Shown here in pieces: positions 1-64,000 of a DNA stretch of 64,000 bases (positions are counted from its first letter, which is position 1; each line of letters opens with the position of its first letter). A program made the translations under genes and the position numbers. A model generated the notes under the pieces. It saw nothing but the letters and a program-made list of their open reading frames with translations, had not been told where the DNA came from and made no database searches. The DNA comes from a virus (Duplodnaviria; Caudoviricetes), in IMG/VR virus record IMGVR_UViG_3300025314_000014, positions 4,371 to 68,370 of that record. One strand, written 5' to 3'.

Positions 1-22
1 TAAGGCATTATAACCTCCTTAT

Positions 23-80
23 GGGCAATATTGGGGAGAGGGTTGCCCCGGACCTCCACGACCTCTCCCCTCTATTGCCC
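23..80 (-). terminator. Long imperfect stem-loop downstream of capsid operon A (terminator, attenuator or processing site)
   Basis: GGGCAATA(23-30)/TATTGCCC(73-80) and GGGGAGAGG(33-41)/CCTCTCCCC(62-70); no clear U-tract. Confidence 0.5.
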
Positions 81-93
81 TATAAGAATAGGC

Positions 94-519
94 CTACGTG
101 AGTTTGGCTAGACCTGACGCCAACTGCTCGTCTACGGCAGGTACACCCAGACTTACCATTGGCTCCAGGTATACTGTGGTATCATTGCACACAGGAGTTG
201 TGCCTGAAACAGTATACTGCAACCTGACCTTGGTAATGGTCTGTCCAGATGCGGGTCTGGGAATGTAGACAGGCCGTGCTATCTCGATATTGTCATCGGC
301 ACCATCCAACTGAGGGAAGGAACCTATCTTGAAGTAGGTTGAACCTCCATCAATTGAGGCCTCGATGTCAAAATCGAATAGTGGGGTAGTGCCTGTGATG
401 AGGGCATTGTTCAGCCTGGCTATGGCGAAGAATCCACCCTCAGTATCTACCGCTGTCTGCTGACCTGTGGCAGTAAGGTCTGCTGCGTTAGCCAGCCTCA
501 GGTTAATATCTCTTGCCAC
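94..519 (-). CDS. Putative capsid cement/decoration protein
   Basis: 141 aa, beta-strand-rich, AGGAGG SD, two genes downstream of the major capsid gene; function inferred from position. Confidence 0.5.
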   Translation of the reverse strand: MARDINLRLANAADLTATGQQTAVDTEGGFFAIARLNNALITGTTPLFDFDIEASIDGGSTYFKIGSFPQLDGADDNIEIARPVYIPRPASGQTITKVRLQYTVSGTTPVCNDTTVYLEPMVSLGVPAVDEQLASGLAKLT

Positions 520-528
520 TTGGACCTC

Positions 529-828
529 CTATGAATGAACTATTCTGACTGATGAGGAACGCTTTTCCTGCTCCTCAATTGGAAGGGGAGAGGCATGAGA
601 GCCATCAGCCATAATGGAATCAGTATCACGGTCCTTCTCCAGCTTGTAGCCGCTGAGTATCCACCCTAGTTCTAAGTGGTAAAAGTCCCAACGGAGAGCC
701 TGTGCCTCCTCTAAAGTCCTGGCAACAGGACGCTCTGACTCCCACTCCTCACCTGCGGATACTCTTTTGACCTTCCGATACAGATTGCCATTACGCTCAT
801 AAACCTCTGGTAGCTCTCCCGATTCCAT
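529..828 (-). CDS. Hypothetical protein
   Basis: 99 aa ORF with AGGAG SD in the capsid operon. Confidence 0.6.
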   Translation of the reverse strand: MESGELPEVYERNGNLYRKVKRVSAGEEWESERPVARTLEEAQALRWDFYHLELGWILSGYKLEKDRDTDSIMADGSHASPLPIEEQEKRSSSVRIVHS

Positions 829-840
829 ATTGTCCTCCTA

Positions 841-1767
841 CTATGCGTCAAGGATTCCGTAGAGCCTCGCAGCGCCACGAGGATGCTTGACTACGACACC
901 ACAGTACCACTCAATCCTACCCAAGTGGTAGGGGCCAGCCTGAACCTCTCCAAAGTCCTTGACTGAGGGGAGGCTCTTTGACTGGATACCGTGAACATGG
1001 TCAGAACTGAACCTAATACAGTAGACACTAGCTGTATCCGAGGTGCCGTCCCCAGGGTCCTCATCGTAGCCCAAGAAGGTGCTACCATCATCCTCACGCC
1101 GGACAATCCTAATGGGAGTACCAGCATAGGCTATCTGCTGCTTACCGAAAGCATCCTGGGTGAAGCTGATGAGGCTGGAACCAGTCTGAGCACGAACAAG
1201 GGCAGTCAGCTTACGGCGGACTGTAGGACTCATAAAGAGAACCTTATCGGCACCATCGCCTACAACTGCATCTAGGAGTGTATCCAGACTCGCAAGTGTC
1301 AGGGCACCTCCACCGCTGGCTTGCAGAATCTTCTGTCCTCCAATCAGGCGCTTACGGATACCATCGAAGGAGAATGCATCGACCACCGTGTCGCCTTCGA
1401 AGAAGGACTCCGAGAACTTAATTCCTGCTTGACGAGCCTTCATCCGGTACTTCTCAGCTTTGAGGTTGAGCAGGTTAGACATAACCTCGACCTCGAAGTT
1501 GTCAACCTTGACCTCACCACCGAGAATAACCAGAGGCTCAAACTCTGGATTGATTACACCTGCGTCAGGCGTGTATGTGCCGCCAACACCACGGAAGGCC
1601 ACTGTGCCTAGCGTTCGCTCCTTGTGGTAGCGGAACGCAGGGCCATTAATGGTCTTCATAGGTAGATATTCTAGGATTGGAGAGGTCTCTACGATAATCT
1701 TTGTGACTGCCCTCTCCAACTCATCCTGACTATGCTTGGCAGCCTCTAGAAGTGTTATGTCCGCCAT
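841..1767 (-). CDS. Major capsid protein A (HK97 fold, epsilon15 gp7-like family)
   Basis: Motifs TLLEAAK, SPILEYLP, ILGGEVKVD, FFEGD...FDGIRKRL and C-terminal AARLYGI; follows the scaffold gene; strong SD. Confidence 0.85.
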   Translation of the reverse strand: MADITLLEAAKHSQDELERAVTKIIVETSPILEYLPMKTINGPAFRYHKERTLGTVAFRGVGGTYTPDAGVINPEFEPLVILGGEVKVDNFEVEVMSNLLNLKAEKYRMKARQAGIKFSESFFEGDTVVDAFSFDGIRKRLIGGQKILQASGGGALTLASLDTLLDAVVGDGADKVLFMSPTVRRKLTALVRAQTGSSLISFTQDAFGKQQIAYAGTPIRIVRREDDGSTFLGYDEDPGDGTSDTASVYCIRFSSDHVHGIQSKSLPSVKDFGEVQAGPYHLGRIEWYCGVVVKHPRGAARLYGILDA

Positions 1768-1776
1768 AGCTTCCTC

Positions 1777-2664
1777 CTATTTCTTCTCAGACTTCGACAA
1801 TGCACTCTCTAGTAGCTCGTTAGAGGGTGTGCCTAGAAGGTCAGGTGTAGCGCCTGTCCTTCGACCTGATGTTAGTGGGGGCCTATCCTGCTCTAACTCT
1901 GCAAGCTGCTCCTGCTTGTGAGTCTCCCACTTCTCGGCTAGTAGCTCCTGAGCGCGTGCTTCTACTCGGCTATCAATAATGGCCTGGCCAATAGCCTGAC
2001 CCCAGGATACAAGGCCATCGACTCCCATATGAGTAAAGTTCTCAGGTTTTAGCTCTGCCTTTACAACATCGTCTAAGCCTGAGTTCTCTAACATATGAGA
2101 GTATACAGCAACCTGGGCCGCATTGGAGTAGACCTCTGAGGCACGAGCAACAGCCTCTGGACTGAGACCACCACCAGATTGTTTACGCTCCTGGTATTGA
2201 GCATAGGCAGAGGCAGCCTTAGAGTCAGCCGAAATCTCCTCCCCAATTTCCTCTTGAGTCATTGAGGAGAAGTGCTCATCCCAGAGCGCGTGGTCAGCCC
2301 GTTCTCGCTCAGTTTGAGCAATAGCAGGCCGCTCACGTTCCAGGACTGCTGCTACCTGGGCTGCCCCTGCCCTATCCGCCCATGACTGGAGCATTGGACC
2401 TAATGCTGGATGTGCTAGAAGTTGCTGAATGTTGAGGTCCTTGAGAGGGTCAGGAGCTTCCTCCTCCTCCCCTTTCTCCTCTTCTCCAGCCCCTCCCTCA
2501 CCATCACCAGTTCCAGCACCGGTTAGGCCAGGCTTGCTCTCCTTCTCAGAAGTGCTATCACCTGCACCATCGGCACTTTTATCTCCAGCACCCTTGGATT
2601 GAGGGGGAGCTACGGTTCCCTCAATCTCATGGGCTAAGGCGGCTATGTCAGGGTCAGTAGGCAT
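1777..2664 (-). CDS. Capsid scaffolding protein A
   Basis: Acidic, disordered N-terminus, helical body, directly upstream of MCP. Confidence 0.7.
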   Translation of the reverse strand: MPTDPDIAALAHEIEGTVAPPQSKGAGDKSADGAGDSTSEKESKPGLTGAGTGDGEGGAGEEEKGEEEEAPDPLKDLNIQQLLAHPALGPMLQSWADRAGAAQVAAVLERERPAIAQTERERADHALWDEHFSSMTQEEIGEEISADSKAASAYAQYQERKQSGGGLSPEAVARASEVYSNAAQVAVYSHMLENSGLDDVVKAELKPENFTHMGVDGLVSWGQAIGQAIIDSRVEARAQELLAEKWETHKQEQLAELEQDRPPLTSGRRTGATPDLLGTPSNELLESALSKSEKK

Positions 2665-2686
2665 AATTTATCTCCCCAATCTGGTA

Positions 2687-2965
2687 TCACGTTACCATAT
2701 CTGTCTGAACGTTGTCAATACCCATCTGGGGCGCTGCCCAGATACGATTTACGTTGGTCTGGCTCATCTCGAACAACTCCGCAACAGCAGCCACAGGTAA
2801 GATTCCTTCCAGAGCCTTTATCTTAGGATTACGTTCTCGGTTTCTAATACCCCTTACCCCACCCTCAGACTCATATCGGCATTGTGCTAGAGGGCAGTTA
2901 AGGCAGCAGGATGATACTTCGCAGCCGCAGGAGCCGTGATGGTTGCAGGTAATTACGGGCTTCAT
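2687..2965 (-). CDS. Cys-cluster plus helix-turn-helix DNA-binding protein
   Basis: GCEVSSCCLNCPLAQCRYE followed by HTH VAAVAELFEMSQTNVNRI. Confidence 0.65.
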   Translation of the reverse strand: MKPVITCNHHGSCGCEVSSCCLNCPLAQCRYESEGGVRGIRNRERNPKIKALEGILPVAAVAELFEMSQTNVNRIWAAPQMGIDNVQTDMVT

Positions 2966-5900
2966 CGGGAGCGCCTCTTATGCCTACCCTGCATAAAGAT
3001 AGGAGTTGCTCCAAACCATTTGGCAAGGGCAGCGTCGGCCTCTGGATTAGCAAACCTGTAACGCTCTTTGAGGTCACTGACTATGGATTCAACCTGACGA
3101 AGAACTGGCAAGTCAGAGGCTATAGATGCAGCCTGCTCAAGTGGATACCCCTGCTTGACGAGACCTTGGACTATTGAGAACACATAGTCATCGGTAGTCT
3201 CATAGGGGCTTAGTTCAGGTGAACCTTTCCTGATTGTATCCCAGACTGAATCCTCTAGCTCGAAGTAGGGTCTAAGAGTTCTAATTGCCTTCTTGTATTC
3301 CTTTGTGAGTGGAGTGTCTCGGAGGCCTGTGTTATCCTCAACATAACGTTTCTGCTCAGGCGTCCAGGAGTCCTCTAAGTCGTTCAGACTAACAGCCAGC
3401 TTCTCAGGGTCTATGTTACCCCAAGGTGTGCGGGCATTGATGAAGGCATCTCGTTGCTGTTGAAGTGCCAAGTCATTAGGATTATCAGGTACTTGAAGCC
3501 TACCCGCTGCCTCTGGATGGTCACGTTCCCACTGGTCAAAGGCTCCTGCACGGGCAGCATTGATACGCTGGTACTCGGCTCTCCATTCAGGACCAGCCAT
3601 ACCTGCTGAGTCAAGTGCCTTCATCTGAGTCTCATAAGTATCAAGCAGAGTGGTGCGGGCCTCAAGCGCCTTGCCATATTCACTTGTGGCTTCTGGACGC
3701 TTCAATTCTGGCCTAGCCCTCTCAAGCTCAAACTTCTGCCTAGGCTCAAGGTCAGGCCAATTCTTCTGGAATGACTCCTGAGCGGCCTCATTACGACGGT
3801 TAGCAAGGTTCTCATAAGCTGTAAGAGGAGCAGCCTTTGTACCAAGTATTTGGAGAGCAGAGGCTCCAATCTCCTGTGGAGTCTTGGGAATACCCTCTTC
3901 ACCTGCCTGTTGGAGAGAGATAGGCCCTAGCTGCTTTGTAAGCTGTCCAAGACTAACCAGAACCTCCTCAGCATTACCCCATTTGAGGTCAGCACCTTGG
4001 ATTGTGTGGCCCTGAATGAGGTCATAAATGCGGGCAACTGCAGGAGAAGCCTTGGTACGTGCAATATAGCTAGTGCCTTGAATAGGATTCGTGGCCCCTA
4101 TATAGATAGCCTTCACAAGTGAATCCCAGGGGCCAAAGACGCTAATATCACGGCCAAGTGCTCGTATCCTTAGGAAGTTAGAGCTAGAGGGATTGAAGTC
4201 AGTCTTGTTGCCCAGAACCTCATTGAGAGAGTACGTAAGGGCCGTACCCAAGATAACCAGCTTGGATATTGCCTTAGCTGCCTCATTCCCTCCTAGTGTC
4301 CTCTTCGTCAAGCCATCTGAAACTAGACCTATCTGGGAGCGGAAGAATCTGGGGGCGAACAGCATTGCAGTCTCCAGGCTGGTAGCCTTCCCACCGGTGT
4401 AGCCTGTTGCAAGGTTAACCATACGGGCTAGGCCCTCTAGGTCTTTAGTTGATGCACCAGCCTTAGCCGCTGACTCAAACATCTCCAGACGCAGGCTATT
4501 CCCGAAACGGGTGAACCAAGTATTTGACAGTCTGGCAGCCTTACCAAATCCAGGAAGTTTCTCAGGCCAGCCTGAGAAGAGGAACTCACCCATATCGTTG
4601 CGGGCTGCGAAGTGACCTCCACTCTTGAGGAAGTTATCGAGTAGGCCACTAGCCTGGTGTGCTGCAATCCTCTCATCATAGGCAGTAGTAAAGGCATATC
4701 TAAGGGATTGTATATAGGCTTTAGGGTTATGAGCAGCACCTATTAGGCCCTGGACACCCATAAAGGATGCATCAGCAGTCGCCATCAGGGGCCTGATAAG
4801 GTTGTTGAACCTGTTAACAGTTGACTCCAAGAGGCCAGAAGCCTTAGGACTGTCGAAGTCTAGGAGCCTTTCACCAACCTGCTCGGAATAGAACTTGCCT
4901 CGGAAACGTTTAGGAAACTCTCTTGTACCGCCAGCGGTTAGTTCCCGCATAATAGTAGCTCGACGGGCCTTAATAGGTTGGAGTTCAGCACGAGCAGTTC
5001 TAAGTAGGCCCCTAGCTTCCTCTTGGATTCCAGCTAGAGTAGCTTGGCGGCCAGCCTTCAGAGGTAGTCCAGAGGCCTCCTTTGCTCTCTTACCAAGGGC
5101 CACAAGGTCATTCTCAACAAGTTTTCCTGGCATACGGAAGGCCCATCTACTGCCTACACGTTTGGCAATGGTTGCCTCACGCTCTAGGGACTGTAGACGC
5201 CTAATCCTCTGTACTAGAGCGACTCCCTGCTTAAGTAGGTCTGGAGCCTGTTGGCCCAGTAACTCAGTAACACTAAACCCATAGGGCCTAAGTGCTGCCT
5301 CAAGCCATTTGTCTGCGACACGGTTATAACCCTGAACTATACGGGCCTGTTGAGCATCAGCAAACCCCATATACTCCAGGCCAGCTTCAATACCTTCAGC
5401 CTTAGTAGAGACACTACGGGGCTTCTCGAAGGCCTGCTTAGCACCTAGCTTCTCCTTGACAACAGGGCCTACTGGGACTGTCTCCTCAAGCTGTGTCAAG
5501 GATTTTGGGTCAGTGATATTCACTGGGCGGCGGATTACCTGACGGTGAGTATAAATGCCACGAGGAGTAGGTATGTCATGGACTTTAAGGCCAGCAGCCT
5601 TTTCAGTTTGGCGGAGGATACTTAGCTGTTCATTGACCAGCTTGACTGCGCCTATCTGTTGGGGGTTGAGCTTGAAGTCCTTATAGGTCTCAATTACATC
5701 ATCAATATAAGGCTGACCTGGGAGGTCTAAGACTCTCCCCTCATTGTTAAGCCTAAAAGTCTTGCTTACAGCCGCACGTATTAGGTCATTAGAGCGGGCA
5801 GCAGCATTGTGACCAAAGGCTCTAATCCTGCCATACTCATGGAGGAGCATTCCCATATCATCATCGATAAGACGGACTCCTCGACCTTCTAGCCAACGCG

Positions 5901-6768
5901 TAACTGAGCCTGGAAGGGAGTTGCCTATTACCCTCCTACCAAACTGAGTAAGAGAGAGATTCTGACGGGCATCGATGATGACTTCCTCTGCTGTATGGAC
6001 TCCAAACTTATCTAGGGTAGTTCCCCTCATACCCTGGATAATACGCTCCATCTCAGGGGATTCAGCAGCACCCCCAGAGATTGCAGGAAGGATATTCTTA
6101 AGGGCAGCCCTACTACCTATACCTGAGAAGAGTGCGTCTAGGACTGGAAGCCTAGCAGCAGTCCTAGCACCAATCTTGCCAACTGCTCCTGTCCCCCCCA
6201 AAATCAAGCCTGGATAATTGAGAGGGTCAAACACAGTATAAGCTGTAGCCTCTGCTGCTATCTCATGCTCTAGCTCAGGCGAGATTGGTATTGGCCTCTT
6301 CCTAAATACATCAGAAACACCTGGGATACCGCTTTTCCCTAGGAGGCCTCCGCCTGCCCCTATATCAGCATACTTCTCTCCAAGTGGCCTACCAACCTCC
6401 CTGTAAGATAGGTCCATTAGCTGCTTCACTGGCCGGAGAACATCCCAGGGCTCTCTAACCTTACCTCGGAATACAGCAGAGGATACATCATCTACTGCAC
6501 CCAAAACAGGAGAAGCAATCTTACCAAGGATACCTCCACCGCCGCCTTTGGACTTAGTATCAGGCTGAATCTCATCCGCCTGGATACGAGTCATTAGAGG
6601 ACCTTCTGGACTCCCTAGCTGGGGGAAGAGATTAGGGTCAAGGCCACGGCGTGCCATCTCACCACGGGCCTGACGCCTAAATGCTATACGTTCAGCAGAG
6701 GCTCTGAAGGCCCTACCCTCACGCCTGGACCTAACGTCCCTGGGCTCGGACTCCCACCAGTTAGGCAT
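2962..6768 (-). CDS. Large internal virion (ejection) protein A
   Basis: 1268 aa between portal and scaffold as in podoviruses; shares motifs with 45285..50315. Confidence 0.65.
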   Translation of the reverse strand: MPNWWESEPRDVRSRREGRAFRASAERIAFRRQARGEMARRGLDPNLFPQLGSPEGPLMTRIQADEIQPDTKSKGGGGGILGKIASPVLGAVDDVSSAVFRGKVREPWDVLRPVKQLMDLSYREVGRPLGEKYADIGAGGGLLGKSGIPGVSDVFRKRPIPISPELEHEIAAEATAYTVFDPLNYPGLILGGTGAVGKIGARTAARLPVLDALFSGIGSRAALKNILPAISGGAAESPEMERIIQGMRGTTLDKFGVHTAEEVIIDARQNLSLTQFGRRVIGNSLPGSVTRWLEGRGVRLIDDDMGMLLHEYGRIRAFGHNAAARSNDLIRAAVSKTFRLNNEGRVLDLPGQPYIDDVIETYKDFKLNPQQIGAVKLVNEQLSILRQTEKAAGLKVHDIPTPRGIYTHRQVIRRPVNITDPKSLTQLEETVPVGPVVKEKLGAKQAFEKPRSVSTKAEGIEAGLEYMGFADAQQARIVQGYNRVADKWLEAALRPYGFSVTELLGQQAPDLLKQGVALVQRIRRLQSLEREATIAKRVGSRWAFRMPGKLVENDLVALGKRAKEASGLPLKAGRQATLAGIQEEARGLLRTARAELQPIKARRATIMRELTAGGTREFPKRFRGKFYSEQVGERLLDFDSPKASGLLESTVNRFNNLIRPLMATADASFMGVQGLIGAAHNPKAYIQSLRYAFTTAYDERIAAHQASGLLDNFLKSGGHFAARNDMGEFLFSGWPEKLPGFGKAARLSNTWFTRFGNSLRLEMFESAAKAGASTKDLEGLARMVNLATGYTGGKATSLETAMLFAPRFFRSQIGLVSDGLTKRTLGGNEAAKAISKLVILGTALTYSLNEVLGNKTDFNPSSSNFLRIRALGRDISVFGPWDSLVKAIYIGATNPIQGTSYIARTKASPAVARIYDLIQGHTIQGADLKWGNAEEVLVSLGQLTKQLGPISLQQAGEEGIPKTPQEIGASALQILGTKAAPLTAYENLANRRNEAAQESFQKNWPDLEPRQKFELERARPELKRPEATSEYGKALEARTTLLDTYETQMKALDSAGMAGPEWRAEYQRINAARAGAFDQWERDHPEAAGRLQVPDNPNDLALQQQRDAFINARTPWGNIDPEKLAVSLNDLEDSWTPEQKRYVEDNTGLRDTPLTKEYKKAIRTLRPYFELEDSVWDTIRKGSPELSPYETTDDYVFSIVQGLVKQGYPLEQAASIASDLPVLRQVESIVSDLKERYRFANPEADAALAKWFGATPIFMQGRHKRRSR

Positions 6769-6770
6769 AT

Positions 6771-7085
6771 CTATGAACTCAGGTATCCGCTATCCACTGA
6801 CTTCCTGCGCCGCTGATTCTGCTGGCCGAATGCTCTGCTCTGGGCAGTAGGACTAGCTTGAGAAGGTAGACTAAACTCCTGGATTATCCTCTTCATAACT
6901 GCCTGACCCTGAGGAGAGTTCTGGAAGTCAGTAGGTCTCATTAGGTCTCCCTGCTGGCCAAATGCCCTTGACTGGGCTGTAGAGCTAGCCTGGGAAGGCA
7001 GTCTCTTAGGTCTCTTAGCCGACTGCATAAACTCCAAGGCTAGTCGAGTGTGCCTAGGGTCTACTGATATTTGCATATGTGGCAT
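6771..7085 (-). CDS. Hypothetical protein with internal 17-aa repeat
   Basis: LPSQAS(S/P)TAQSRAFGQQ occurs twice. Confidence 0.6.
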   Translation of the reverse strand: MPHMQISVDPRHTRLALEFMQSAKRPKRLPSQASSTAQSRAFGQQGDLMRPTDFQNSPQGQAVMKRIIQEFSLPSQASPTAQSRAFGQQNQRRRKSVDSGYLSS

Positions 7086-7094
7086 TGCAGCCTC

Positions 7095-7865
7095 CTAGAA
7101 GGAATACTGTGTCGCACCAGTGTTGACATAGGGAATAAAGCCTTCCTGCAATTTCTGGAAATAGTCCTCTGGATTAATACCGACCCGTGTACCTCCCTGT
7201 TGAACACCACCCTTGAGAAAGCTCGAAAGAATAGCAAGGTCAGTCGGGTCAAAGGTTTGGAACTGGCTCCTACTAACAGATTGAGTAGTGGGAATGTTGA
7301 CTCCAAACTGGCCTATACCAGCGGAGACTTCAGGAGCAGCACCTATAATGGAGTTGAACATAGCCTGGATGTCAGCATCAGACCTGACAGCCCCAGTTTG
7401 AGGGGCAAGCCCTTGCTCCTGCAGTTTTCTCTTATACAGTTCGTAGGCCACAAAGTCAGCAGGATTAGCGGACAGTTGCGCCTCGGTAGTGTAACGTTGC
7501 TGTTTGAGGTTCTCTCGGTCTATTGTAGCCTGGAGGTCGGTTGCATACTTCTGAGCCGCAATCAGTTTGTCCTGGAGATTCATATAGGACCCAGGGTCTA
7601 TAAATAGGCTGCTAGGGTATCCGGTGGGTGCTGGTGCAGCAGGGGCTGGTGCTGCAGGGGCTGGAGCAGGTGCTGGTGCTGCTGCGCCTACAATCTGTCC
7701 TGGTCTCCAACCTCCAAGGAGTGCCTTCTGGAGAGCCACATTGCCTGCTGCCGACCCAACAGGAGCAGTAATCCCAATCTGTCCATAAAGAGTTTTAAGC
7801 TCTGCCATTCCTGGCCAGTTGCGGCCTACAAGTCTTGCATAAGTCTGATACGGGTACTCAGCCAC
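7095..7865 (-). CDS. Putative internal virion protein
   Basis: GTG start at 7865 after GGAGG SD; Pro/Ala linker and Gln-rich coiled coil; positional counterpart of 50370..51161. Confidence 0.55.
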   Translation of the reverse strand: MAEYPYQTYARLVGRNWPGMAELKTLYGQIGITAPVGSAAGNVALQKALLGGWRPGQIVGAAAPAPAPAPAAPAPAAPAPTGYPSSLFIDPGSYMNLQDKLIAAQKYATDLQATIDRENLKQQRYTTEAQLSANPADFVAYELYKRKLQEQGLAPQTGAVRSDADIQAMFNSIIGAAPEVSAGIGQFGVNIPTTQSVSRSQFQTFDPTDLAILSSFLKGGVQQGGTRVGINPEDYFQKLQEGFIPYVNTGATQYSF

Positions 7866-7867
7866 AG

Positions 7868-8059
7868 TTACACCTCCGACCCTACAGGAGCACACATAGC
7901 GCACAGAAGAACAGGCATGGAAGTCTGTATCCAGTTGATAGGATTCTTAACCTGTGGATATATTTGCTCTTGAGGTATAAATACAACCTGCGTTAGGCCT
8001 CTCACAGCCTGAGAATATTCCTTCCAATGTTGACATCCTGGACAGAAAAAGATTTGCAT
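7868..8059 (-). CDS. Small putative zinc-binding protein
   Basis: CPGC...CAMC; fills the gap between two operon genes. Confidence 0.5.
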   Translation of the reverse strand: MQIFFCPGCQHWKEYSQAVRGLTQVVFIPQEQIYPQVKNPINWIQTSMPVLLCAMCAPVGSEV

Positions 8060-8839
8060 CTAGAGGAACCTCTTGGCTAAGTCAATAGCCTGCTGAATCT
8101 GGCTTGTATCAGGGACTCCTACAGCATAAGGACTGGGAGTGGTTTGTATTAGGTTGAGGGCGATTGCAAACGGGTCATAGGCAATTGGCTTGGACTCTCG
8201 CGGCTGGAGGCCGAGACTTGTTGCTAGGCCCCCAGGCTCAAAACCTGTAGAGTACTTGGAGCCTTCTGGGATTGTGAACTGCTGAATACCCTCGAACCGT
8301 TCACCTGCCTCTGAGATGGCATCCAGTTGCCTATTGAACTCCTGCATAGCTTGGTCTGAGCGGAGACGGCGAGCCTCAACCTCAGTACCAAGGCCCTCAA
8401 TGACTGCACTCAGGTAGTTGGACATTCGTTGGTTAGCAGCAGAGGCGGCAGCGGCGGCACTAGAGGCCCCTCCATCCCCAGAATCACCCTCTGTCAGATT
8501 CCTATATGCAGCTACATCCTTATAGTACGAGGAGTAGTCACGACCTATAACCTTACCATATTCGTCCAGTAGGTCATAGGCAGGGTCATTGATATTAGGT
8601 ATAGGAATATCTCCAGGCCCATACCTAGTAGTAGTACCAGTGGGTTGACTTACTCCAGGCTCAGTGAATGGAAAGGTTGCAGGAGCGGAGGTACTTGCCC
8701 ATATAGCCTTACCAGAGGAGTCATATCCAATAATCTTCTTGGGAGTAATGGGTGGAGGTGTCACAGGGTAAGCAGGCCTAGGAGTAGGTGTTGGAGTTGG
8801 CCCTGGAGTTAGCCTCGGTAAAGGTTTAGGTTGTGTCAT
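8060..8839 (-). CDS. Putative internal virion protein
   Basis: Pro-rich N-terminus, coupled to neighbours in the morphogenesis operon. Confidence 0.5.
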   Translation of the reverse strand: MTQPKPLPRLTPGPTPTPTPRPAYPVTPPPITPKKIIGYDSSGKAIWASTSAPATFPFTEPGVSQPTGTTTRYGPGDIPIPNINDPAYDLLDEYGKVIGRDYSSYYKDVAAYRNLTEGDSGDGGASSAAAAASAANQRMSNYLSAVIEGLGTEVEARRLRSDQAMQEFNRQLDAISEAGERFEGIQQFTIPEGSKYSTGFEPGGLATSLGLQPRESKPIAYDPFAIALNLIQTTPSPYAVGVPDTSQIQQAIDLAKRFL

Positions 8840-11166: not shown

Positions 11167-11169
11167 AGC

Positions 11170-13261: not shown

Positions 13262-13277
13262 TTGATTCCTCACCATC

Positions 13278-16911: not shown

Positions 16912-16922
16912 GGATAGGACAG

Positions 16923-53477: not shown

Positions 53478-53479
53478 GA

Positions 53480-53839: not shown

Positions 53840-53842
53840 AGC

Positions 53843-55249: not shown

Positions 55250-55661
55250 GCAACTCCTGCAACTCTTCCTCTGGTTGCTTTAGAAGAGTAGATTCAACAG
55301 ATTTAACCGCTCTAGTTGAACGCGTAGCGGTTTCCTCTGCTGATTTGCCGAGCACCTTGTCGATTGCCCATAGTGCGGCCTTTAATTGTGAGCTAACCAC
55401 TCCTGGTTCGCCGCCTTGTTTCGCAATCTTCAAGACTATCTCGGTATTCTCAACTACGCTTTCGCGTAGCAAGGTGACGGCCTGACTTGTCAGGTCTACT
55501 CGAAGTTCGTCAATCCTTGCTGTAAAGTCCTCCTCCTTCATCCACCGACTGACAGTCTGTGGGTAAACTCCCATCTCACGGGCTACGTCTACCTGTTTCC
55601 ATCCCTCAGCGATGAGGAGGGCTGCTTTCTCTTTTCGGGGGTCAAGCTTGGTTACGGCCAT
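55233..55661 (-). CDS. terS: Terminase small subunit B
   Basis: N-terminal HTH (QVDVAREMGVYPQTVSRW) overlapping the terL start. Confidence 0.75.
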   Translation of the reverse strand: MAVTKLDPRKEKAALLIAEGWKQVDVAREMGVYPQTVSRWMKEEDFTARIDELRVDLTSQAVTLLRESVVENTEIVLKIAKQGGEPGVVSSQLKAALWAIDKVLGKSAEETATRSTRAVKSVESTLLKQPEEELQELLDRGK

Positions 55662-56455: not shown

Positions 56456-56797
56456 GAATCAATGCCCTAACCTGACTGTCGGGCAGAGAGTGAGCTCCCG
56501 ATGGCCAAGCTATACCGCCTGACATTCAACGTATCGGGAAGCGGATACTTCCCCTTTGACATGCTTAGGTATGACGCATGCTTTCCCTGTACAAGCGAGG
56601 ATTGCGTGGAGCTAACGCGCAAAGGCGAACGACGGATAGGGCTCGTTCGCGTCTTTCACGGCAACAAAGCCAATGCATCCTATCAGGTGACTCCTGGGAG
56701 GTGGCGGTCATTCGGCTGGCGTCTTAGTGACCTAAGCAATCCGCAAGAGATTTCCTGACTGACAATTCGCCCGACAGTCAAGCTAGGGCATTGATTC
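56456..56797. repeat. 29-bp inverted repeat pair (27/29) flanking one ORF
   Basis: GAATCAATGCCCTAACCTGACTGTCGGGC (56456-56484) vs GCCCGACAGTCAAGCTAGGGCATTGATTC (56769-56797). Confidence 0.92.
56501..56758 (+). CDS. Hypothetical phage protein inside the inverted repeats
   Basis: 85 aa; FNVSGSGYFPFDMLRYDACFP...TPGRWRSFGW. Confidence 0.7.
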   Translation: MAKLYRLTFNVSGSGYFPFDMLRYDACFPCTSEDCVELTRKGERRIGLVRVFHGNKANASYQVTPGRWRSFGWRLSDLSNPQEIS

Positions 56798-57078
56798 ACA
56801 ATCCAAACCGCTTTCACTAGCGGTTTAGAATGCTTCTGCGCGTTGTCGGGAAGGATACTCCCATGACAGTACCGAGCTATTGCATCGGTACAGCAGACCC
56901 TGAGCTATCGCCAGATGAGCGGGAATATCTAGTCTCTTATTTGAGCGATTGGCTGAGGCATGGGCATGACATTTACTGCGCAGACTGTTCGCAGTCTGTC
57001 CGAGATGTAGTGCTCACAGATGATGGGCAGTTTGTATGTCGCCCGTGTTACGGTGACAAGGAAGGGAAGTAGACTCCA

Positions 57079-57429
57079 ATGACAACACGAGGCAAGGGTA
57101 AGACAACGGGGCTGGCGATACGTCTGTTTATCCTCAAGCTGATTGCGGTCAACGCAAAGCAAACGGGATTCAACGGCGTACACTGCAATTTCCCGCTTGT
57201 GTGGGCTGGCAATCTGTCATTCAACAAGCTGGTTAGTGCGGAGTTTGGCATCGATACCCAAGCTGTTCGGGCCGTGACCGATGCCATGACTGACACGGGC
57301 GAGATAGTCCGTCTACCCGCAAAAGGCGGCGTTCGGTTCTACCTACCGGACAAGGCCCCGGCTAGCTCGCCTGCGACAGTAAGCGCCAATGCCCTAACGG
57401 TGGCTACTAAGCTACTCCAGGCGAAGTAA
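57079..57429 (+). CDS. Hypothetical early protein
   Basis: 116 aa ORF in early arm B. Confidence 0.55.
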   Translation: MTTRGKGKTTGLAIRLFILKLIAVNAKQTGFNGVHCNFPLVWAGNLSFNKLVSAEFGIDTQAVRAVTDAMTDTGEIVRLPAKGGVRFYLPDKAPASSPATVSANALTVATKLLQAK

Positions 57430-57466
57430 CGAACGCATAGTGAGTAGATAGCGCGTAGATAGCATC

Positions 57467-57814
57467 CTAGACCGCTAGGGACAGCCGTTCGGGTTCCCAG
57501 GTTTTAATACGGTGGCAGATTGCACATAGGACAGTGCATTTTGCCACCTCTTTTTTTAGTCTGTTGAGGGTGTAGCTACCCACCATCGCACTGACCGGAG
57601 CAAACTTAGTGGATGGGTCAATGTGGTCTAAGTCCAAAGCGTAGGCATGCTCGTTGTATCCACAATGTTGACACCCTAGAGACAATATGACATGGGACAC
57701 ATTGTACGCGCCAACAGACGGCGCGTTTTTTGTTGCCCATACCCCAACAGCGGCCCCATATCTGTTGACCGCACATGCGCGTGCTGGCGACCCTCTGACA
57801 GCCGAAACGCGCAA
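57467..57814 (-). CDS. HNH endonuclease (N-terminus uncertain, possibly truncated)
   Basis: GCQHCG...LDLDHIDP...EVAKCTVLCAICHRIKT. Confidence 0.75.
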   Translation of the reverse strand: MRVSAVRGSPARACAVNRYGAAVGVWATKNAPSVGAYNVSHVILSLGCQHCGYNEHAYALDLDHIDPSTKFAPVSAMVGSYTLNRLKKEVAKCTVLCAICHRIKTWEPERLSLAV

Positions 57815-57977
57815 ATCTCACGGCTCAAGGCTAGGGTAAGGGCTAAGGGTAAACTCGCCTGTCGGTATGCGTTATTTTGGTAGACAGTCGGCGAGAAACT
57901 GTGCAAAGCTGGGCAATTCTCTCTCCGACTAAGTGATAGGCCGTGCCTTAATAAGACTCCCGCGAATCACTGCTTCT

Positions 57978-58006
57978 AGCATAACATATTTAAGCAAGTT
58001 TGTCAA
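57978..58006 (-). promoter_or_regulatory. Sigma70-type promoter upstream of the HNH region
   Basis: TTGACA-17-TATGCT with TGn; flanks similar to the promoter at 55978. Confidence 0.65.
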
Positions 58007-58108
58007 GCCCCAAGCACAGGCGTAAGGCATAAGGGTAGACTGTGGGTGCGTAAGGGGTTATTGAGAAAGGCAGGGGCGAAGTATCTATAGGCAAGCGATA
58101 GTCTGGGG

Positions 58109-58136
58109 TTGACATCGGGTGCGGTTGTGGTAAAAT
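58109..58136 (+). promoter_or_regulatory. Early promoter B1
   Basis: TCTGGGG-TTGACA-16-TAAAAT with TGn. Confidence 0.65.
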
Positions 58137-58380
58137 GATGGTGGCCGACTGGAGAGCGGTCACTAGAGAGAGGAGAAGAAATGAGAGACCAAGCTGGCAA
58201 GATTGTTGATTACAATATCCGATTTCAAGATGGGGCTATAGTCTTGGAGTTTGTACCTTACATAGACAAGACTAAGTATTACTATATTGGGATGTCAGAT
58301 GATGATGTTGTAAGACTTATCTCAGACTTATCTAAGGCACTAGCAAGGAGGTGAGCACCTATCTCTGAGCCTATCTGGGG

Positions 58381-58409
58381 TTGACACGATTCTCGGAGTG
58401 TGCGATAAT
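58381..58409 (+). promoter_or_regulatory. Early promoter B2
   Basis: TCTGGGG-TTGACA-17-GATAAT with TGn. Confidence 0.65.
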
Positions 58410-58740
58410 AGTCGTGGCCGCTCCGAATGGGGCGGCAAGGAGAGAAAAGGAGAGACAGCAATGGCAACAGAGCTAGAACTTCTCGAACACAAAGCACTAA
58501 TGCGTAAGCTCGCAGGACAGAAGGCCGCACGTACACGAGCAAGGAGGGCAAAGAAGGTAGAGTATCCTAATCCCCTGAGCACGGCGATTGTTATTCATGG
58601 TAGGGAGTATATCCCTTATCGGAATTCGAGGAGTTAACATGATGATATGTGACGTATGCTTTACAGATTCTTGGGGCCAATGCATAGACAACCGCGCCGC
58701 TATCGCCGCCGTGAAAGAGATAGACCAACAGGAGTAAAGC

Positions 58741-60111
58741 ATGAACGCACCTCAATGCATCTTTGGACATGGTGTTGCTGTTGTTACTTGGACTCTTTCA
58801 GAACCGCGTAACATAAAACAATACAAGGAGGATGTTTATCTCTGTAAGGACTGCTACAACGAAATAATCAGATTAGCAGGAACATTAGGATATGCGGATG
58901 CACCATTTATGTATATGGTACAAATGCATGATGCCCTTGTCTCTGCCCATTCTCTGTCTTGTGTAATCTGTCTATTTGAGGGAACGAGAAGTATCGAGGG
59001 CTTGTATTGGTGTGCGAAGCATTACCAAACTGCCGAAAAGGTAGCACAATCTACTGGGGAGACTTTTGACCTATTATCGGCTGTGCAAAGATTCCTGTGG
59101 AAACTGCAATTAGAGTGTGAGGAATGCAAGGAAGATACTAATAGGTGTCCAAATTGTGCGGAGTGTGAGTGTGAGGGGTGCGACCATTGGTGTTCAGACT
59201 GCAATGAGTTCGTGAGGGGGTTTTCGGTTTGCGGGGACTGTGGAGTTCGGAGTTGTTCTAGCTGCGCCTCTTGGTGTGGCGATTGTGGCACCTGTACTGA
59301 TTGCTGCCACTCATGCAGACGTTGTGGTGAGTGTACTAGCAGCGCCTCTTGGTGTGGCGATTGTGGCACCTGTACTGATTGCTGCCACTCATGCAGACGT
59401 TGTGGTGAGTGTACTAGCAGCGGTGCATGTGACTGCGGGCACGATTCCGAATCTGATGTGGCTGTAGGAGATTGGGGGTTGCCCATTGTGTTTAAGCTAC
59501 ACCAAGCGGCGGCCACATTCTATACTCTAGCAACTATGGCCGAGCGTGACCCAAGCTACAAGCAAGAGTTTGAGAACTACGCGAAGGAACTGGCCGAAGT
59601 CTTTGCTCCTTATCTAGACATGGCTGTTGGTGGGGAGATTAGGTATGGGTCGGAGACGATTGGTGATGGTGAGGCTAAGAGACTGATGCCTAGAATACAC
59701 AAAAGGTATCGTAAGTATGGTAACATCAATCGAGGCAAGGCGTGGGCAGAGTGGAAAACCCTGCGCGATGAGTATGGCACTGACATTCTTAGAGAGGCGG
59801 AGTACGCTCTAGAAGAAGGCAAGTGGGGAAGGTCAGTAGGTGGTCATGCTTGGGCACAAGTGGCGGCCACACTCAGGCAGTTCGAGGAGGGTGAGATTAG
59901 TGTGGTCACATTTGTTGATACCGCTTTCGGACTGGAGCATAACAACGGCTGCATATTCAACAAACTGTGGACGACGTATGGGCTCAAAGATATACTCGAT
60001 GCCAACTTGGAGGGTAGAATAGAGTACGTTGAGAAGCATCTGCCGGAAGAAGAACCACACACTAAGCGTTATCATGCGTGGAAACAGTTTGGTTCCCACA
60101 CGTTTAGATAG
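58741..60111 (+). CDS. Cys-rich protein with helical C-terminal domain of unknown function
   Basis: Dense CxxC array; C-domain with GGHAWAQVA...FVD...EHNNG.IFNK. Confidence 0.7.
   Translation: MNAPQCIFGHGVAVVTWTLSEPRNIKQYKEDVYLCKDCYNEIIRLAGTLGYADAPFMYMVQMHDALVSAHSLSCVICLFEGTRSIEGLYWCAKHYQTAEKVAQSTGETFDLLSAVQRFLWKLQLECEECKEDTNRCPNCAECECEGCDHWCSDCNEFVRGFSVCGDCGVRSCSSCASWCGDCGTCTDCCHSCRRCGECTSSASWCGDCGTCTDCCHSCRRCGECTSSGACDCGHDSESDVAVGDWGLPIVFKLHQAAATFYTLATMAERDPSYKQEFENYAKELAEVFAPYLDMAVGGEIRYGSETIGDGEAKRLMPRIHKRYRKYGNINRGKAWAEWKTLRDEYGTDILREAEYALEEGKWGRSVGGHAWAQVAATLRQFEEGEISVVTFVDTAFGLEHNNGCIFNKLWTTYGLKDILDANLEGRIEYVEKHLPEEEPHTKRYHAWKQFGSHTFR
59264..59422 (+). repeat. Exact 78-bp tandem duplication (in frame, 26 aa)
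   Basis: Copies start at 59264 and 59342; encode ASWCGDCGTCTDCCHSCRRCGECTSS. Confidence 0.95.
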
Positions 60112-60119
60112 GAGAGCGA

Positions 60120-61676
60120 ATGACAATAACAAAACCAACTGAGGCGGTACACTGTAGGCTATGTAAGACAGAGATGAAAGTCGACGGGCTACTTTACTAT
60201 TGCAAGGAAACAAACTGTGACACATTCCCTGTCTGTGACTTGTGCCTATGTCATGATTGTGGCCGGTGTGATTTGTGCTGCACTTGTATAGAGCAAGAGG
60301 TATGGGCGGGAGGTAATCTATACTGTTTCACTTGTGGAAGTGTGGAATACCACGCACTAGAATCAGAAGACGGACTAGCAACCAACGCCGATGCTATCTG
60401 TGTGAAGTGTAAGACCACTTTCGGCAAGGACGTGAGCGTAGCTGACATTAGCATTGAGAAACTGTATTCAGATGGTGTAAATTTTGAGTTCCTTGTGTGG
60501 TGGGAGAAGAACGTGCTCAACATACCTGACACTACCGATGAGAACGACCCCGCTGATACAGAAGAAGAGGATGAGGATTACATCTTCTGTGCCAGATGTG
60601 GCACAAACCAACAGCACAAGTTTCTCTATCGTGTGGTCATGGGGACGACGAACAATACATCTCCTAAGTTAGAGTGCCTAGTTTGTGGGCAGACACGATT
60701 CCATAGATTTCGCAAAATGTCTGATGGTTCGTTCACTGAGGTTGGGACAGGGCAGGGCGTAACACCTAGTCTGGCAAGCACGTACCACCGGAGCAACGTA
60801 TACAATTATGGGAGATACGAGAACTCACAGTGGTACGGCGGAGGATTTCACAACTGCGACCACTGGCGTGACCCTGTGAAACTAGGAGAATACACTGTCT
60901 ATGCCTCTGCATCCTCCGATAAGAATAGTGCGAAGGACACGGACATACGACCGGACTATGGCTTCTACTTCTCTACTATCTCGTGGTCGCATAAACTGAC
61001 GGTGACGCCGGACTTCCCAAGAGAATTGGTAAAGATAGATGTGGCTTTCCCGTGCCTGTTCTACGACTGGACAGACATGAGCGCACCGCGTAGTCCATAC
61101 ATACTACACATTGTCAAGGCTGCGACAGAGCTAATAAAAGAGGGCAAGAAGGTAGACATTGGGTGCATGGGGGGACATGGCAGGACGGGCACGTTCATGG
61201 CACTGTTGGCGGTAGAGTTGTTAGAGATGACGGCGCTAGATGCTATCAACCTGGTGCGAAAGAACCACTGTCAAGAAGCCATCGAAACCTACGCACAACG
61301 AGCGTTCATCTACGGGTTTGCTGGTGAACCTACCCCGCCCGCTCCTGTCAGTCTTAGTGCATCAACTAATAAGAATCAAGGCACGAAATACAAGACGCGG
61401 GCTGAGAAGAAGGAAGGTAAGAAGCAGCGTAAGGCAAGACGAATAGCATTTAGGGAGAAGGTGAAGGAGGCACAGGGTCGAGGAGTCACTAGGCTTGCAG
61501 ATTTTGAGACTAATGGGTTCTACTGGCAGTGCAAGAGTTGTTGTACCATGCTACAGTCTATGATTGAACGACCACACGGAAGGAACGACACGACGGACGA
61601 CATTTACTGCACATCCTGTACAGAAAAGACACATCATGTGCGGCCAGCGATTCTATGGGAGGAGTTTAAGGCATGA
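60120..61676 (+). CDS. Zinc-finger-flanked protein-tyrosine/dual-specificity phosphatase-family protein
   Basis: P-loop GCMGGHGRTG (CX5R), acid loop WTDMSAP, Q-loop AIETYAQ; multiple CxxC pairs. Confidence 0.85.
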   Translation: MTITKPTEAVHCRLCKTEMKVDGLLYYCKETNCDTFPVCDLCLCHDCGRCDLCCTCIEQEVWAGGNLYCFTCGSVEYHALESEDGLATNADAICVKCKTTFGKDVSVADISIEKLYSDGVNFEFLVWWEKNVLNIPDTTDENDPADTEEEDEDYIFCARCGTNQQHKFLYRVVMGTTNNTSPKLECLVCGQTRFHRFRKMSDGSFTEVGTGQGVTPSLASTYHRSNVYNYGRYENSQWYGGGFHNCDHWRDPVKLGEYTVYASASSDKNSAKDTDIRPDYGFYFSTISWSHKLTVTPDFPRELVKIDVAFPCLFYDWTDMSAPRSPYILHIVKAATELIKEGKKVDIGCMGGHGRTGTFMALLAVELLEMTALDAINLVRKNHCQEAIETYAQRAFIYGFAGEPTPPAPVSLSASTNKNQGTKYKTRAEKKEGKKQRKARRIAFREKVKEAQGRGVTRLADFETNGFYWQCKSCCTMLQSMIERPHGRNDTTDDIYCTSCTEKTHHVRPAILWEEFKA

Positions 61677-62029
61677 AAGAACGTAAGAGCCGCCCGTCTC
61701 TACTGGTTTTGTCAGACCGTGATGCGCTACTGAAAAAACTATTGGCTGAATTTCAAAGGCATAACGTAGGTAAGGAACAGATTATTAATTTCCTACTTCA
61801 CATATTTGCACAGTGCGCCCACCCCCAAGAGACTCTAATATTGTGGGGAGGTACGGAATCGCTCAAAGCAATAGTGAAAATAAATAAGAAATTAGAAGAG
61901 GTAATACACAGCCTACAAACTAGAGTAATTGATGTAGATGGTACTGTGCGTAATATAGCGCTCTATAGTAGTTCGTGGGAGTTGTTTGCAGAGACCTTGA
62001 CAGGAGCTAAGGGTGAGGACGCCACTTAG
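61673..62029 (+). CDS. Hypothetical protein
   Basis: 118 aa, coupled to the phosphatase gene (ATGA). Confidence 0.5.
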   Translation: MKERKSRPSLLVLSDRDALLKKLLAEFQRHNVGKEQIINFLLHIFAQCAHPQETLILWGGTESLKAIVKINKKLEEVIHSLQTRVIDVDGTVRNIALYSSSWELFAETLTGAKGEDAT

Positions 62030-62270
62030 GTCTAGTCCGTTTCGGGCGGTAAAGGGGAGAGTCGAAAAGGTTTTGAGAAGTGAATAAGAAGATGTGTTGC
62101 CACGAGATGTGGAGGTTTAGAAAAGCTGAGGGATGTACCCCCCACCTATGGAATAACCTTATCTGGGGTTGTGACGACAATTTTGAGGTTCCTATAAGCT
62201 ACTGCCCGTGGTGTGGTACACAAATAAACCCAGACCCGCGAGATTTCCTCCCGTTGGAGTCTGGTCTACC

Positions 62271-63791
62271 ATGATAGAGGAAATTTTCGCCGGACTAGGG
62301 CCACGCTACGCTGAGGCACGAGAGATGCAAAGAAATATCTTAATTAAAATAGCCCGTGAATTGGGGACAATATCTTCAACTAAATTAGGCAGGCTTACTA
62401 TGCTAGAGCTGCCCACTGGAATCGGGAAGTCTGCAATTGCTATATCATTGGCAGAATTGATAGGTTCACCGTTCACTGTCATCAATACGGCCACCATATC
62501 TTTGCAGAACCAATACGATGCGGACTTCCCTCGTGTCTGCAAACTGGTAGGCAGGGATAACTTCGAGTGCACCCTGAGATACAAGACTACGGCAGCGAAC
62601 GCTCCGTGTGTAGCTGACTCGTCTATATCTTGTAACTCTGACTTTTATGCACAGGAGGAGGAGTACAGACGCTCGGCAGTAGTGGTAACAAACTATGCAT
62701 TGTATATGTCTGAGCTACTGAAGGGTAAGCGATGGCATGAGCGCCGTCCACACCTGTTAGTCTGTGATGAGGGGCACCGACTGTTAGATTTCCTCACTCA
62801 AGCAGAGACAATCACTGTTGACCGGAGATTGTGCGAGAAGCTTAACCTAAAGGTTCCAGCGTCCAACGAGATAGAACCTATGCAAACTTGGGCAAAGCTC
62901 AATGTAGACAAGGTTCGTAAACGTGCCTTCGGTCTGACGTTATCTGGCAGTAAATGGGCAAAGGCTTGGTTATCTCTTATGTACCAGCTACAGGGACTAG
63001 CCACAAGTCCGGCGGGGCTTATAGTAACCCGTGCCGATGACTTGTTTGAGGCTACTCCACTCTGGCCCCGTAAGAGCGCCGAATCTTTGCTCCAGTCTGC
63101 CAATCATGTATTAGTTATGTCAGCCACATTATGGGGAGGAGACTTTTTTGCAGAATTGTTAGGGTACAAGGATGACTACAAGTATATATCTGCACCGTCC
63201 CCATTTGACAAATGGCGCTGGCCGGTGTATTATAGACCCGTGGCTTCGATGAACAAGGATTCGTCCGTCAAGGACTGGGAAAGGATGGGGTTAGCATGTC
63301 ATGAATACATACACAGCAGAAGTGGGGATAAAGGAATCATCCACGTCGCCTCTGTATCTCAGGTGGATAGGCTGGCAAGGACAATCTTACGGTGTCAGGA
63401 CTGCCGGTCTAGGCTGGTACTTCTACGTCGTGGAGGGAAACGTGTTGAGACTCTTGACAGGTTTCGAGCAAGCAAGGCAGGATGGATTATACACCCATCA
63501 ATCGGAGAAGGAGAGTCCTTCGACGACGAGCAATGTCGAATCCAACTTATTGCCAAGATTAGATATCCAGACTTGGCTGACCCACTCGTCAATCTTCGTG
63601 CAAACGATGGGGGAATGGGACAAAAGTTTTATTTCAATTCCACTGCCGCCTACACTAGTCAAACTATTGGAAGAGGAATGCGAAGTGCCGATGATTACTG
63701 CGAAACCTACATTTTGGACGGGAGTTTTGCAAACCTGTATGACCGGAATAAAAAGGCTTTTCCTCAGTGGTTCCACGACCAACTGAGGTAG
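62271..63791 (+). CDS. DinG/XPD-family SF2 DNA helicase (start revised to 62271)
   Basis: Q-motif REMQ, ELPTGIGKS, LQNQY, GRDNFEC, DEGH, MSAT, QTIGRGMRSADD. Confidence 0.88.
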   Translation: MIEEIFAGLGPRYAEAREMQRNILIKIARELGTISSTKLGRLTMLELPTGIGKSAIAISLAELIGSPFTVINTATISLQNQYDADFPRVCKLVGRDNFECTLRYKTTAANAPCVADSSISCNSDFYAQEEEYRRSAVVVTNYALYMSELLKGKRWHERRPHLLVCDEGHRLLDFLTQAETITVDRRLCEKLNLKVPASNEIEPMQTWAKLNVDKVRKRAFGLTLSGSKWAKAWLSLMYQLQGLATSPAGLIVTRADDLFEATPLWPRKSAESLLQSANHVLVMSATLWGGDFFAELLGYKDDYKYISAPSPFDKWRWPVYYRPVASMNKDSSVKDWERMGLACHEYIHSRSGDKGIIHVASVSQVDRLARTILRCQDCRSRLVLLRRGGKRVETLDRFRASKAGWIIHPSIGEGESFDDEQCRIQLIAKIRYPDLADPLVNLRANDGGMGQKFYFNSTAAYTSQTIGRGMRSADDYCETYILDGSFANLYDRNKKAFPQWFHDQLR

Positions 63792-63808
63792 TGAAAGGAG
63801 ATGTGATA

Positions 63809-64000
63809 ATGGGGCTAAACACGAAATGTAAAGTTCACGGAAACGCACACCCTGACTTCATGTGCCCAGATGAGGATGAAGATACAACTTCTTTCGCCCG
63901 CTCCCTCGCTGCCGCCCGTCTTGAGGTCGCAGCGAAGGAATCCGAGTTGTCGGTTGTTCAGCGAGACTTGAACGGTGCGAATGCCTACATCGAGGAGGTT
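63809..64000 (+). CDS. Partial coiled-coil accessory protein sharing a segment with 26638..27198
   Basis: AAAGGAG SD; MGLNTKCKVHG...SLAAARLEVAAKESELSVVQRDLNGANAYIEEV runs off the window. Confidence 0.75.
   Translation, partial: MGLNTKCKVHGNAHPDFMCPDEDEDTTSFARSLAAARLEVAAKESELSVVQRDLNGANAYIEEV
63920..64000 (+). repeat. 81-bp exact repeat, copy 2 (may continue past the window)
   Basis: Identical to 26794..26874. Confidence 0.95.

Follow-up and report, generated by a model that had tools for sequence, protein, structure and literature searches.

Exchange of the tail-fibre or receptor-binding module between unrelated tailed phages is a classical form of phage mosaicism. According to the Phables paper (PMC10563150), repeat regions yield both fragmented and chimeric phage contigs. 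Here we analyze a stretch of 64,000 nucleotides (nt), hereinafter the window, that comprises bases 4371–68370 of the single-contig virus record IMGVR_UViG_3300025314_000014 (68,370 bp) and carries two sets of head and packaging genes, modules A and B. The record is very probably a chimeric metagenomic contig of two phages, A and B, from one community, mis-joined in a fibre gene that they share. It resembles chimeric contigs formed at repeats of mosaic phages, as the switch lies in near-identical DNA, both ends fall at shared stretches, and the parts match stand-alone genomes; as in other repeat-joined chimeras, the remaining arc has been assembled separately and is broken at the same two places. 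Unlike chimeras of strain mixtures, it combines different lineages that have only the fibre module and a portion of a single early gene in common, and hence the product looks like a dual-head genome and not like a strain mixture. As in classical mosaicism, the fibre module is near-identical in otherwise dissimilar genomes, its receptor-binding role being putative here. Taken separately, the two parts resemble IMG/VR lineages of the A type (G001–G003) and of the B type (G004), with which they are colinear and which have genomes of 43–45 kb, one head module, divergent arms, and a family-A DNA polymerase.

Shared Sequences at the Join and at the Record Ends

DNA common to A and B, overlooked in the original prediction made from this stretch, was located by self-comparison of the whole record. 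The first 65 nt of the record are an exact copy of window positions 36902–36966; record bases 1–982 are 90.7% identical to window 36902–37883 (983-nt alignment), and record bases 1296–1550 are 84.7% identical to window 38188–38442 (255 nt). Both similarities fall in fibre genes, and the fibre module shared by A and B spans about 1.5 kb with 85–99% nucleotide identity (record bases 1–1586, locus L001, versus window 36902–38475). At the protein level, the A fibre gene, which is open at the record start for 262 amino acids (aa), is 94% identical to the B copy, and the A 265-aa and B 261-aa proteins are 66% identical; neither the 261/265-aa proteins nor the 453-aa fibre-like protein of the window matches a Pfam or PHROG family. 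At the opposite end, the last 81 nt of the record are an exact copy of window 26794–26874, and the last 99 nt are 95% identical to window 26776–26874; judged by contig G009, described below, this similarity between A and B reaches about 27186 (about 410 nt, A 26776–27186). Both record ends copy interior sequence, and thus both sit in DNA common to the two phages. One assembler k-mer size was considered as the source of the end overlaps and rejected, the overlaps being 65 and 81 nt.

A and B thus share two near-identical stretches, R1 in a tail-fibre gene and R2 in a small early gene. R1 comprises at least 591 identical nt (36376–36966), followed by a further 0.9 kb with about 91% identity. The predicted switch from A to B lies somewhere within these 591 nt, inside the 453-aa open reading frame (ORF), that is, about 100–600 nt away from positions 36250–36350, where the junction had originally been placed. 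The N-terminal part of this ORF (37688 to about 36967) belongs to B; its last 46 nt (36372–36327) and what follows belong to A, and both G009 and another independent contig, L135, part from the window at 36375. As assembled, the ORF is thus predicted to be a hybrid of A and B, because the assembly left A for B within R1.

Phage A as a Circular Genome and Its Relatives

If record bases 1–41,271 (window −4369 to 36,901) are closed on themselves, the C-terminus of the A fibre is supplied in frame by window 36901–36327 and is followed by the 379-aa and 605-aa genes and the lysis cassette. Most likely, these bases form a 41.3-kb circle, the complete phage A, and this closure is supported by synteny with relatives. 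The search of IMG/VR with the A portal candidate yielded 20 loci; the three longest contigs were G001 (42,914 bp, with a 121-nt terminal repeat), G002 (44,995 bp, with one of 108 nt), and G003 (43,837 bp), each 100% complete according to CheckV and each with one head module and one TerL. Whole-record tblastn gave the same order in all three, namely, the major capsid protein (MCP), 99 aa, 141 aa, a variable fibre slot, 379 aa, 605 aa, 253 aa, and the convergent end of the early arm with PolA, which is the order predicted by the A circle. The fibre slot of G001–G003, as well as of G004, contains unrelated genes.

G001, G002, and G003 matched 25, 28, and 22 of the 46 A genes, respectively, and one of the 26 B genes each, this being TerL with 23–26% identity. 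In these genomes, homologues of the 379-aa and 605-aa proteins (53–69% identity) come after the MCP, 99-aa, and 141-aa genes and the variable fibre slot, and so the tail-end and lysis cassette at 30.6–35.9 kb is assigned to A and not to B. The comparison with stand-alone genomes is at the level of relatives, as the set contains no near-identical full-length A or B: protein identity between A and the A-type relatives is 30–77%, and the best cultured-phage match to the A MCP is 37.8% identical.

Two observations concern genes of this lineage. In G003 (C1:30154–33414, L026–L028), TerL lies in one 1093-aa frame, to which the 473-aa TerL of A aligns as three distinct segments, as would be expected with two inteins or other insertions that keep the frame. 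The A gene of the lysin with the GH25 and LysM domains is flanked on both sides by a direct repeat of 61 nt (82% identical; window 31094–31154 and 32154–32214).

Phage B and Its Missing Arc

Window 36.9–64 kb is most likely a 27-kb arc of an unrelated phage, B. The search with the B-type MCP alignment yielded 298 loci, and 80 of them were retained. Closest among the complete relatives is G004, a 44,051-bp circle (terminal repeat of 127 nt, CheckV 100% complete) with one head module, which holds 16 of the 26 B genes colinearly and three of the 46 A genes, the latter at 23–25% identity. The proteins of B and of the G004-type relative are 28–75% identical, the fibre slot being different, and the best cultured-phage match to the B TerL is about 30% identical. 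Past the small genes that follow the MCP, G004 encodes proteins of 983 aa and then 503, 532, and 192 aa, and it has an early arm with a 720-aa PolA; none of these has a place in the window.

The corresponding part of B was found through the fibre gene. The 453-aa protein retrieved one contig from IMG/VR, G009 (19,876 bp), whose first 122 nt are 99.2% identical to window 36494–36373, after which the sequences diverge. G009 encodes an HNH-like ORF, a 435-aa protein (43% identical to the 503-aa protein of G004), a 728-aa protein (37% identical to the 532-aa protein of G004), and an Amidase_2 lysin; its early arm matches that of G004, with 52% identity in PolA. The far end of G009 is 88.6% identical to A 27186–26907, the first 99 nt being exact. 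In A coordinates, it begins 33 nt past the point where the window stops, and it continues in the frame left open at the window end; as expected from this offset, the last 301 nt of the window have no match in G009. G009 matches G004 at 9.8–24.0 kb, and the B part of the window matches G004 at 28.5–44 kb and 0.25–9.1 kb, so that the two tile the G004 circle without overlap, the variable fibre slot apart. Hence G009 appears to represent the missing arc of B, about 20 kb, with both ends in R1 and R2.

The family of the 728-aa and 532-aa proteins is homologous to the family of the A 605-aa protein (hhalign probability 92%, E-value 5e-7, 281 columns); for the A 379-aa protein against the B-type 435/503-aa proteins, profile comparison gave a non-significant probability of 2.9%. 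The 728-aa homologue and the Amidase_2 lysin on G009 show that both a counterpart of the nozzle candidate and a separate lysin exist in B, beyond the window. The single cassette in the window is that of A, and the cassette of B lies on the missing arc. The proposal that only one adaptor, nozzle, and lysis set accompanies the two modules thus holds within the window only because phage B is incomplete there.

The continuation of B across R1 was seen on L135, a 1,854-bp contig from a metagenome scan. Its nt 1–711 differ from window 37083–36373 by three mismatches, with identity over the whole of 36376–36966 (591 nt), and its nt 590–1854 match G009 1–1265 without a mismatch. At five sites that discriminate between A and B (36967–37074), L135 has the B allele at four and the A allele at one. 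Thus the N-terminus of the B fibre, R1, and the DNA downstream in B exist as one piece, contrary to the join to the A downstream region in the window, and the parental B–B join is observed independently, in another assembly. As for a contig bridging R2 in B, the B helicase has no close relative in viral_contigs. According to the original prediction, finding A and B as separate contigs elsewhere would make the linkage an artefact; such contigs were indeed found, for A among its relatives and for the missing arc of B with near-identity.

Composition and Linkage of the Two Parts

Tetranucleotide frequencies agree with this division. The correlation is 0.97 between the halves of A, 0.95 between the halves of B, 0.94–0.96 between B and G009, and 0.86–0.89 between A and either B or G009. 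The sliding profile changes from A-like to B-like between the 31.6–37.6-kb and 37.6–43.6-kb windows, that is, near 37 kb; the first 6 kb of the record, with the shared fibre genes, are ambiguous in this profile. The cassette at 30.6–35.9 kb is closer to A (r = 0.87–0.92) than to B (0.70–0.80).

Linkage of the two module types was sought in other assemblies, as the original prediction had proposed, and none of the 11 large relatives holds both; G001–G006 were compared by whole tblastn, and G007, G008, and G010–G012 by a search for phrog_212, the family of the A MCP, with a positive control. This family was found in G000 and G001 and in none of the eight B-type large records searched. Contigs reach at most 44,995 bp at the 20 A-portal loci and 46,879 bp at the 80 retained B-MCP loci.

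Origin of the Join

The assembly graph would consist of two circular genomes with two common nodes. A graph-based assembler would follow the path R1, A, R2, A, R1, and upon returning to R1 would take the B branch rather than close the A circle; the path would then run through B to the second encounter with R2 and end there, the remaining edge of B being assembled elsewhere as a G009-like contig. The join was presumably made by the assembler and not in a cell, given the shared sequences with their positions, the stand-alone relatives, and the alternative continuation of B, all of which were observed. The features expected of a chimera appear together: the switch is placed in sequence present in both genomes, each side is found as a stand-alone genome in relatives, and composition changes at the join. 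In the original prediction, the joining of two co-occurring phages in assembly was considered no less likely than a real dual-head replicon, and the record ends, the stand-alone relatives, and the continuation of B support the former.

Several points weigh against an assembly join. The exact runs at the record ends are unequal (65 and 81 nt), so that there is no single simple k-mer overlap. No contig spanning the closure of A (fibre N-terminus, R1, 379-aa gene) was found, an A-specific 60-mer having no exact match in viral_contigs; in this search, the parental A–A join was thus not recovered from independent contigs. G009 and L135 are separate assemblies that may come from a slightly different B strain, and L135 has three mismatches per 711 nt to the window and the A allele at one of five sites. 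The join between B and A reads in frame, and a natural recombinant at this place would look alike. The record is of the linear class in IMG/VR and 100% complete according to CheckV; these calls are listed here as well, being uninformative in either direction.

A recombinant could have arisen in two ways, and the in-frame join within at least 591 nt of identity, a plausible recombination substrate, together with the clearly recent exchange of DNA between A and B (91–99% identity in the fibre module, other proteins being mostly dissimilar), would suit either. One is a real A::B cointegrate or dual-head replicon of about 88 kb, formed by homologous recombination in the shared fibre gene and sampled in part by the contig. 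We consider this very unlikely, as both module types occur together in none of the large relatives, 68–88 kb should exceed the capacity of either capsid, the relatives being 43–45 kb, the B–B parental join is present on L135, and the record ends halt at shared repeats, like unresolved graph branches. There is hardly more chance that a cointegrate with two complete head modules persists at appreciable abundance, e.g., as an intracellular replicon in a shared host, and the dual-head interpretation receives no positive support. The other is a minor product of recombination, or an intermediate of replication or of concatemer formation, in co-infected cells, present beside both parental phages and caught by the assembler. 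Bulk metagenomes do contain intracellular DNA, and the shared modules imply co-infection of one host; still, a minor product would rarely decide the assembly path, and an assembler choosing its way at an unresolved repeat accounts for these data with no additional molecule, which leaves this origin improbable to about the same degree.

Two adjacent prophages, or one prophage next to another element, in a bacterial chromosome would also place two phage genomes side by side on one strand. However, no tRNA genes were found in the record, the regions examined are all phage-like, with neither a host-like gene nor an integrase in the family searches (part of the ORFs scanned), and the relatives are circular or terminally repeated stand-alone genomes. 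The A 605-aa protein has no relative in genome_contigs (one genome per species, 185,579 species), and the A part closes on itself. Tandem prophages were rejected on the stand-alone relatives, the A closure, and the lack of host-like genes in these scans, and we regard such an arrangement as the least credible origin, with next to no chance of being correct.

Gene Content and Divergence of the Two Modules

The presence of two head and packaging modules with the same gene order on the same strand (841–13393 in A and 43565–55661 in B), each backed by a divergent early arm on the opposite strand (the B arm beginning at about 56.5 kb), was upheld. Both TerS and both TerL match PHROG families; the record contains two matches to phrog_38, the TerL family, with E-values of 1.6e-65 for A and 2.8e-87 for B. 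The A MCP matches phrog_212 (5.7e-63). The 292-aa B MCP candidate has no PHROG or Pfam family match; its AlphaFold model, built on 26 relatives (predicted local distance difference test, pLDDT, 65; predicted template-modelling score 0.60), was compared with solved HK97-fold capsid proteins and gave 329 matches with E-values of at most 0.001, the best being 8i4l_A (2.5e-10). Thus the B protein is modelled as an HK97-fold MCP.

Other roles proposed for the module genes stand less firmly. The portal candidates (617 aa in A, 646 aa in B) have no match in PHROG, Pfam, or a PDB sequence search, and tblastn of both against 50,697 phage records gave none; a search of PDB sequences with profiles of the B MCP and of the A portal also yielded nothing meaningful. 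The AlphaFold model of the A candidate, based on six sequences, had pLDDT 33 and was not used. As leads only, the ESM Atlas model of the A protein aligns to clusters of SPP1 and P22 portals (TM-score 0.61–0.73), and the B protein has feature matches of 0.94–0.97 to portal-bearing clusters, so that both look-ups lead to portals of the SPP1, P22, and podovirus type. The portals are therefore candidates by position, size, and these leads, and the scaffolds are candidates by position; TerS, TerL, and the MCPs retain the roles originally proposed. The B-portal alignment had two rows only, the L022 row being excluded for an in-frame stop: in this near B relative (84% identity), the portal frame at 2923–4860 contains one stop codon.

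The modules had also been described as highly diverged and not recently duplicated, which agrees with our comparison. By blastp, only TerL (22% identity, E-value 1.6e-16) and the large internal protein (23%, 1.2e-12) match between A and B. The internal proteins (1268 and 1676 aa) align over about 680 aa, have homologues at the same position in G001–G004, and have no PHROG match and no significant Pfam match. In profile comparison, neither the MCPs nor the portals matched significantly (probabilities of 0.2% and 0.6%, respectively). Hence the modules show no detectable sign of being diverged copies, and A and B are best described, from these comparisons, as different lineages with the same overall layout, in which most proteins have no detectable similarity and three match at 22–25%.

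Other Features of the Window

The coordinates of the features are given in Table 1. Among the B genes between the MCP and the fibre module, five (134, 197, 98, 146, and 98 aa) have colinear homologues in G004; the 134-aa and 197-aa genes have counterparts in further B-type fragments as well. HNH-like ORFs vary in position: in B, such an ORF lies between TerL and the portal candidate, in G009 it is just after the fibre gene (L134 1596–2063), and in a near B relative, L038, the homologue lies before TerL and not after it. In the B early arm, the 456-aa ORF (58741–60111), which has no Pfam match, contains two tandem 78-nt units, 97% identical (59254–59409), that look cysteine-rich in translation by eye. 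The 518-aa protein (60120–61676) has a weak match, just above the cut-off, to a protein-tyrosine/dual-specificity phosphatase family (PF22785, 2.5e-6).

The B part contains four near-identical consensus promoters of the sigma-70 type, which may also be written GGGRCTTGACAAA-N13-TGTTATAAT; a GC-rich stretch resembling a hairpin precedes at least two of them. The window contains six copies of the extended −35 word CTTGACAAA, compared with an expectation of 0.52, and five of these lie in the B part. The word is also enriched in G009 and in G004, whereas neither A nor G001 shows enrichment, and it is missing from the corresponding strand of A. It thus seems that B-type phages depend on strong promoters of the host type.

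Table 1. Features of the window (window coordinates unless stated otherwise; A and B denote the two phages).
Feature	Position	Strand	Basis or remark
A late arm, first part	94..13393	−	PHROG, Atlas leads, colinear homologues in G001–G003
A MCP	841–1767	−	PHROG
A scaffold candidate	1777–2664	−	position
A 1268-aa internal protein	2962–6768	−	
A portal candidate	9141–10994	−	position and ESM Atlas leads
A TerL (473 aa)	11170–12591	−	PHROG
A TerS	12581–13393	−	PHROG
Other A late-arm proteins (101, 259, 269, 104 aa; 99, 141 aa)		−	
Leftward extension of A late arm (103, 749, 265 aa, then N-terminal 262 aa of fibre gene)	record bases 1–4370		
A early/replication arm	13660..30573	+	Pfam; same gene order in G001–G003
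A AAA_24 protein	23924–24778	+	Pfam
A HHH nuclease-like protein	25026–25724	+	Pfam
A 186-aa gene	26638–27198	+	
R2, A copy	26776..26874	+	within the 186-aa early gene
A DNA methylase	27199–27984	+	
A family-A DNA polymerase	28783–30573	+	
A tail-end and lysis cassette	30641..35936	−	
A 135-aa protein	30641–31048	−	
A GH25+LysM lysin	31166–32107	−	Pfam
A 253-aa protein	32215–32976	−	
A 605-aa protein	32976–34793	−	
A 379-aa protein	34797–35936	−	
453-aa fibre-like ORF	36327..37688	−	putative hybrid, as assembled
R1, predicted switch zone	36376..36966		
B copy of the fibre module common to A	36902..38442	−	
B genes between MCP and fibre module	38472..43524	−	266, 182, 134, 197, 98, 146, 98, 426 aa
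B head/packaging module	43565..55661	−	PHROG, HK97 fold, Atlas lead, colinear in G004
B MCP	43565–44443	−	
B scaffold candidate	44459–45199	−	
B 1676-aa internal protein	45285–50315	−	
B 96-aa and 263-aa proteins		−	
B portal candidate	51451–53391	−	
B HNH	53480–53839	−	
B TerL	53843–55249	−	
B TerS	55233–55661	−	
B early arm, ended by record end	56501..64000	+	Pfam; same gene order in G004; 456 aa, 518 aa (phosphatase-like), 118 aa, 527 aa (helicase), start of the B version of the 186-aa gene
R2, B copy	63902..64000	+	very end of record
B-only consensus sigma-70-type promoters, CTTGACAAA-N13-TGTTATAAT	39770–39815, 45231–45276, 55966–56011, 57966–58011	−	repeat family D1

Implications

As described, the dual-head genome most probably does not exist, and the biological claim of one genome with two head modules fails and should not be carried forward. 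The record, although rated 100% complete, is most likely one whole phage plus 27 kb of another, and as such it would inflate statistics on genome size, gene content, and clustering. For curation, it should be cut at 36376–36966, with A circularized at 41,271 bp and B completed with the arc represented by G009.

What the sequences imply about the phages themselves is a recent horizontal exchange of the fibre module between A and B, and the presence of this module and of part of an early gene in otherwise dissimilar phages suggests that they probably infect the same host. Thus, the real biology behind this record would be modest, namely, ordinary mosaicism of two uncultured lineages.

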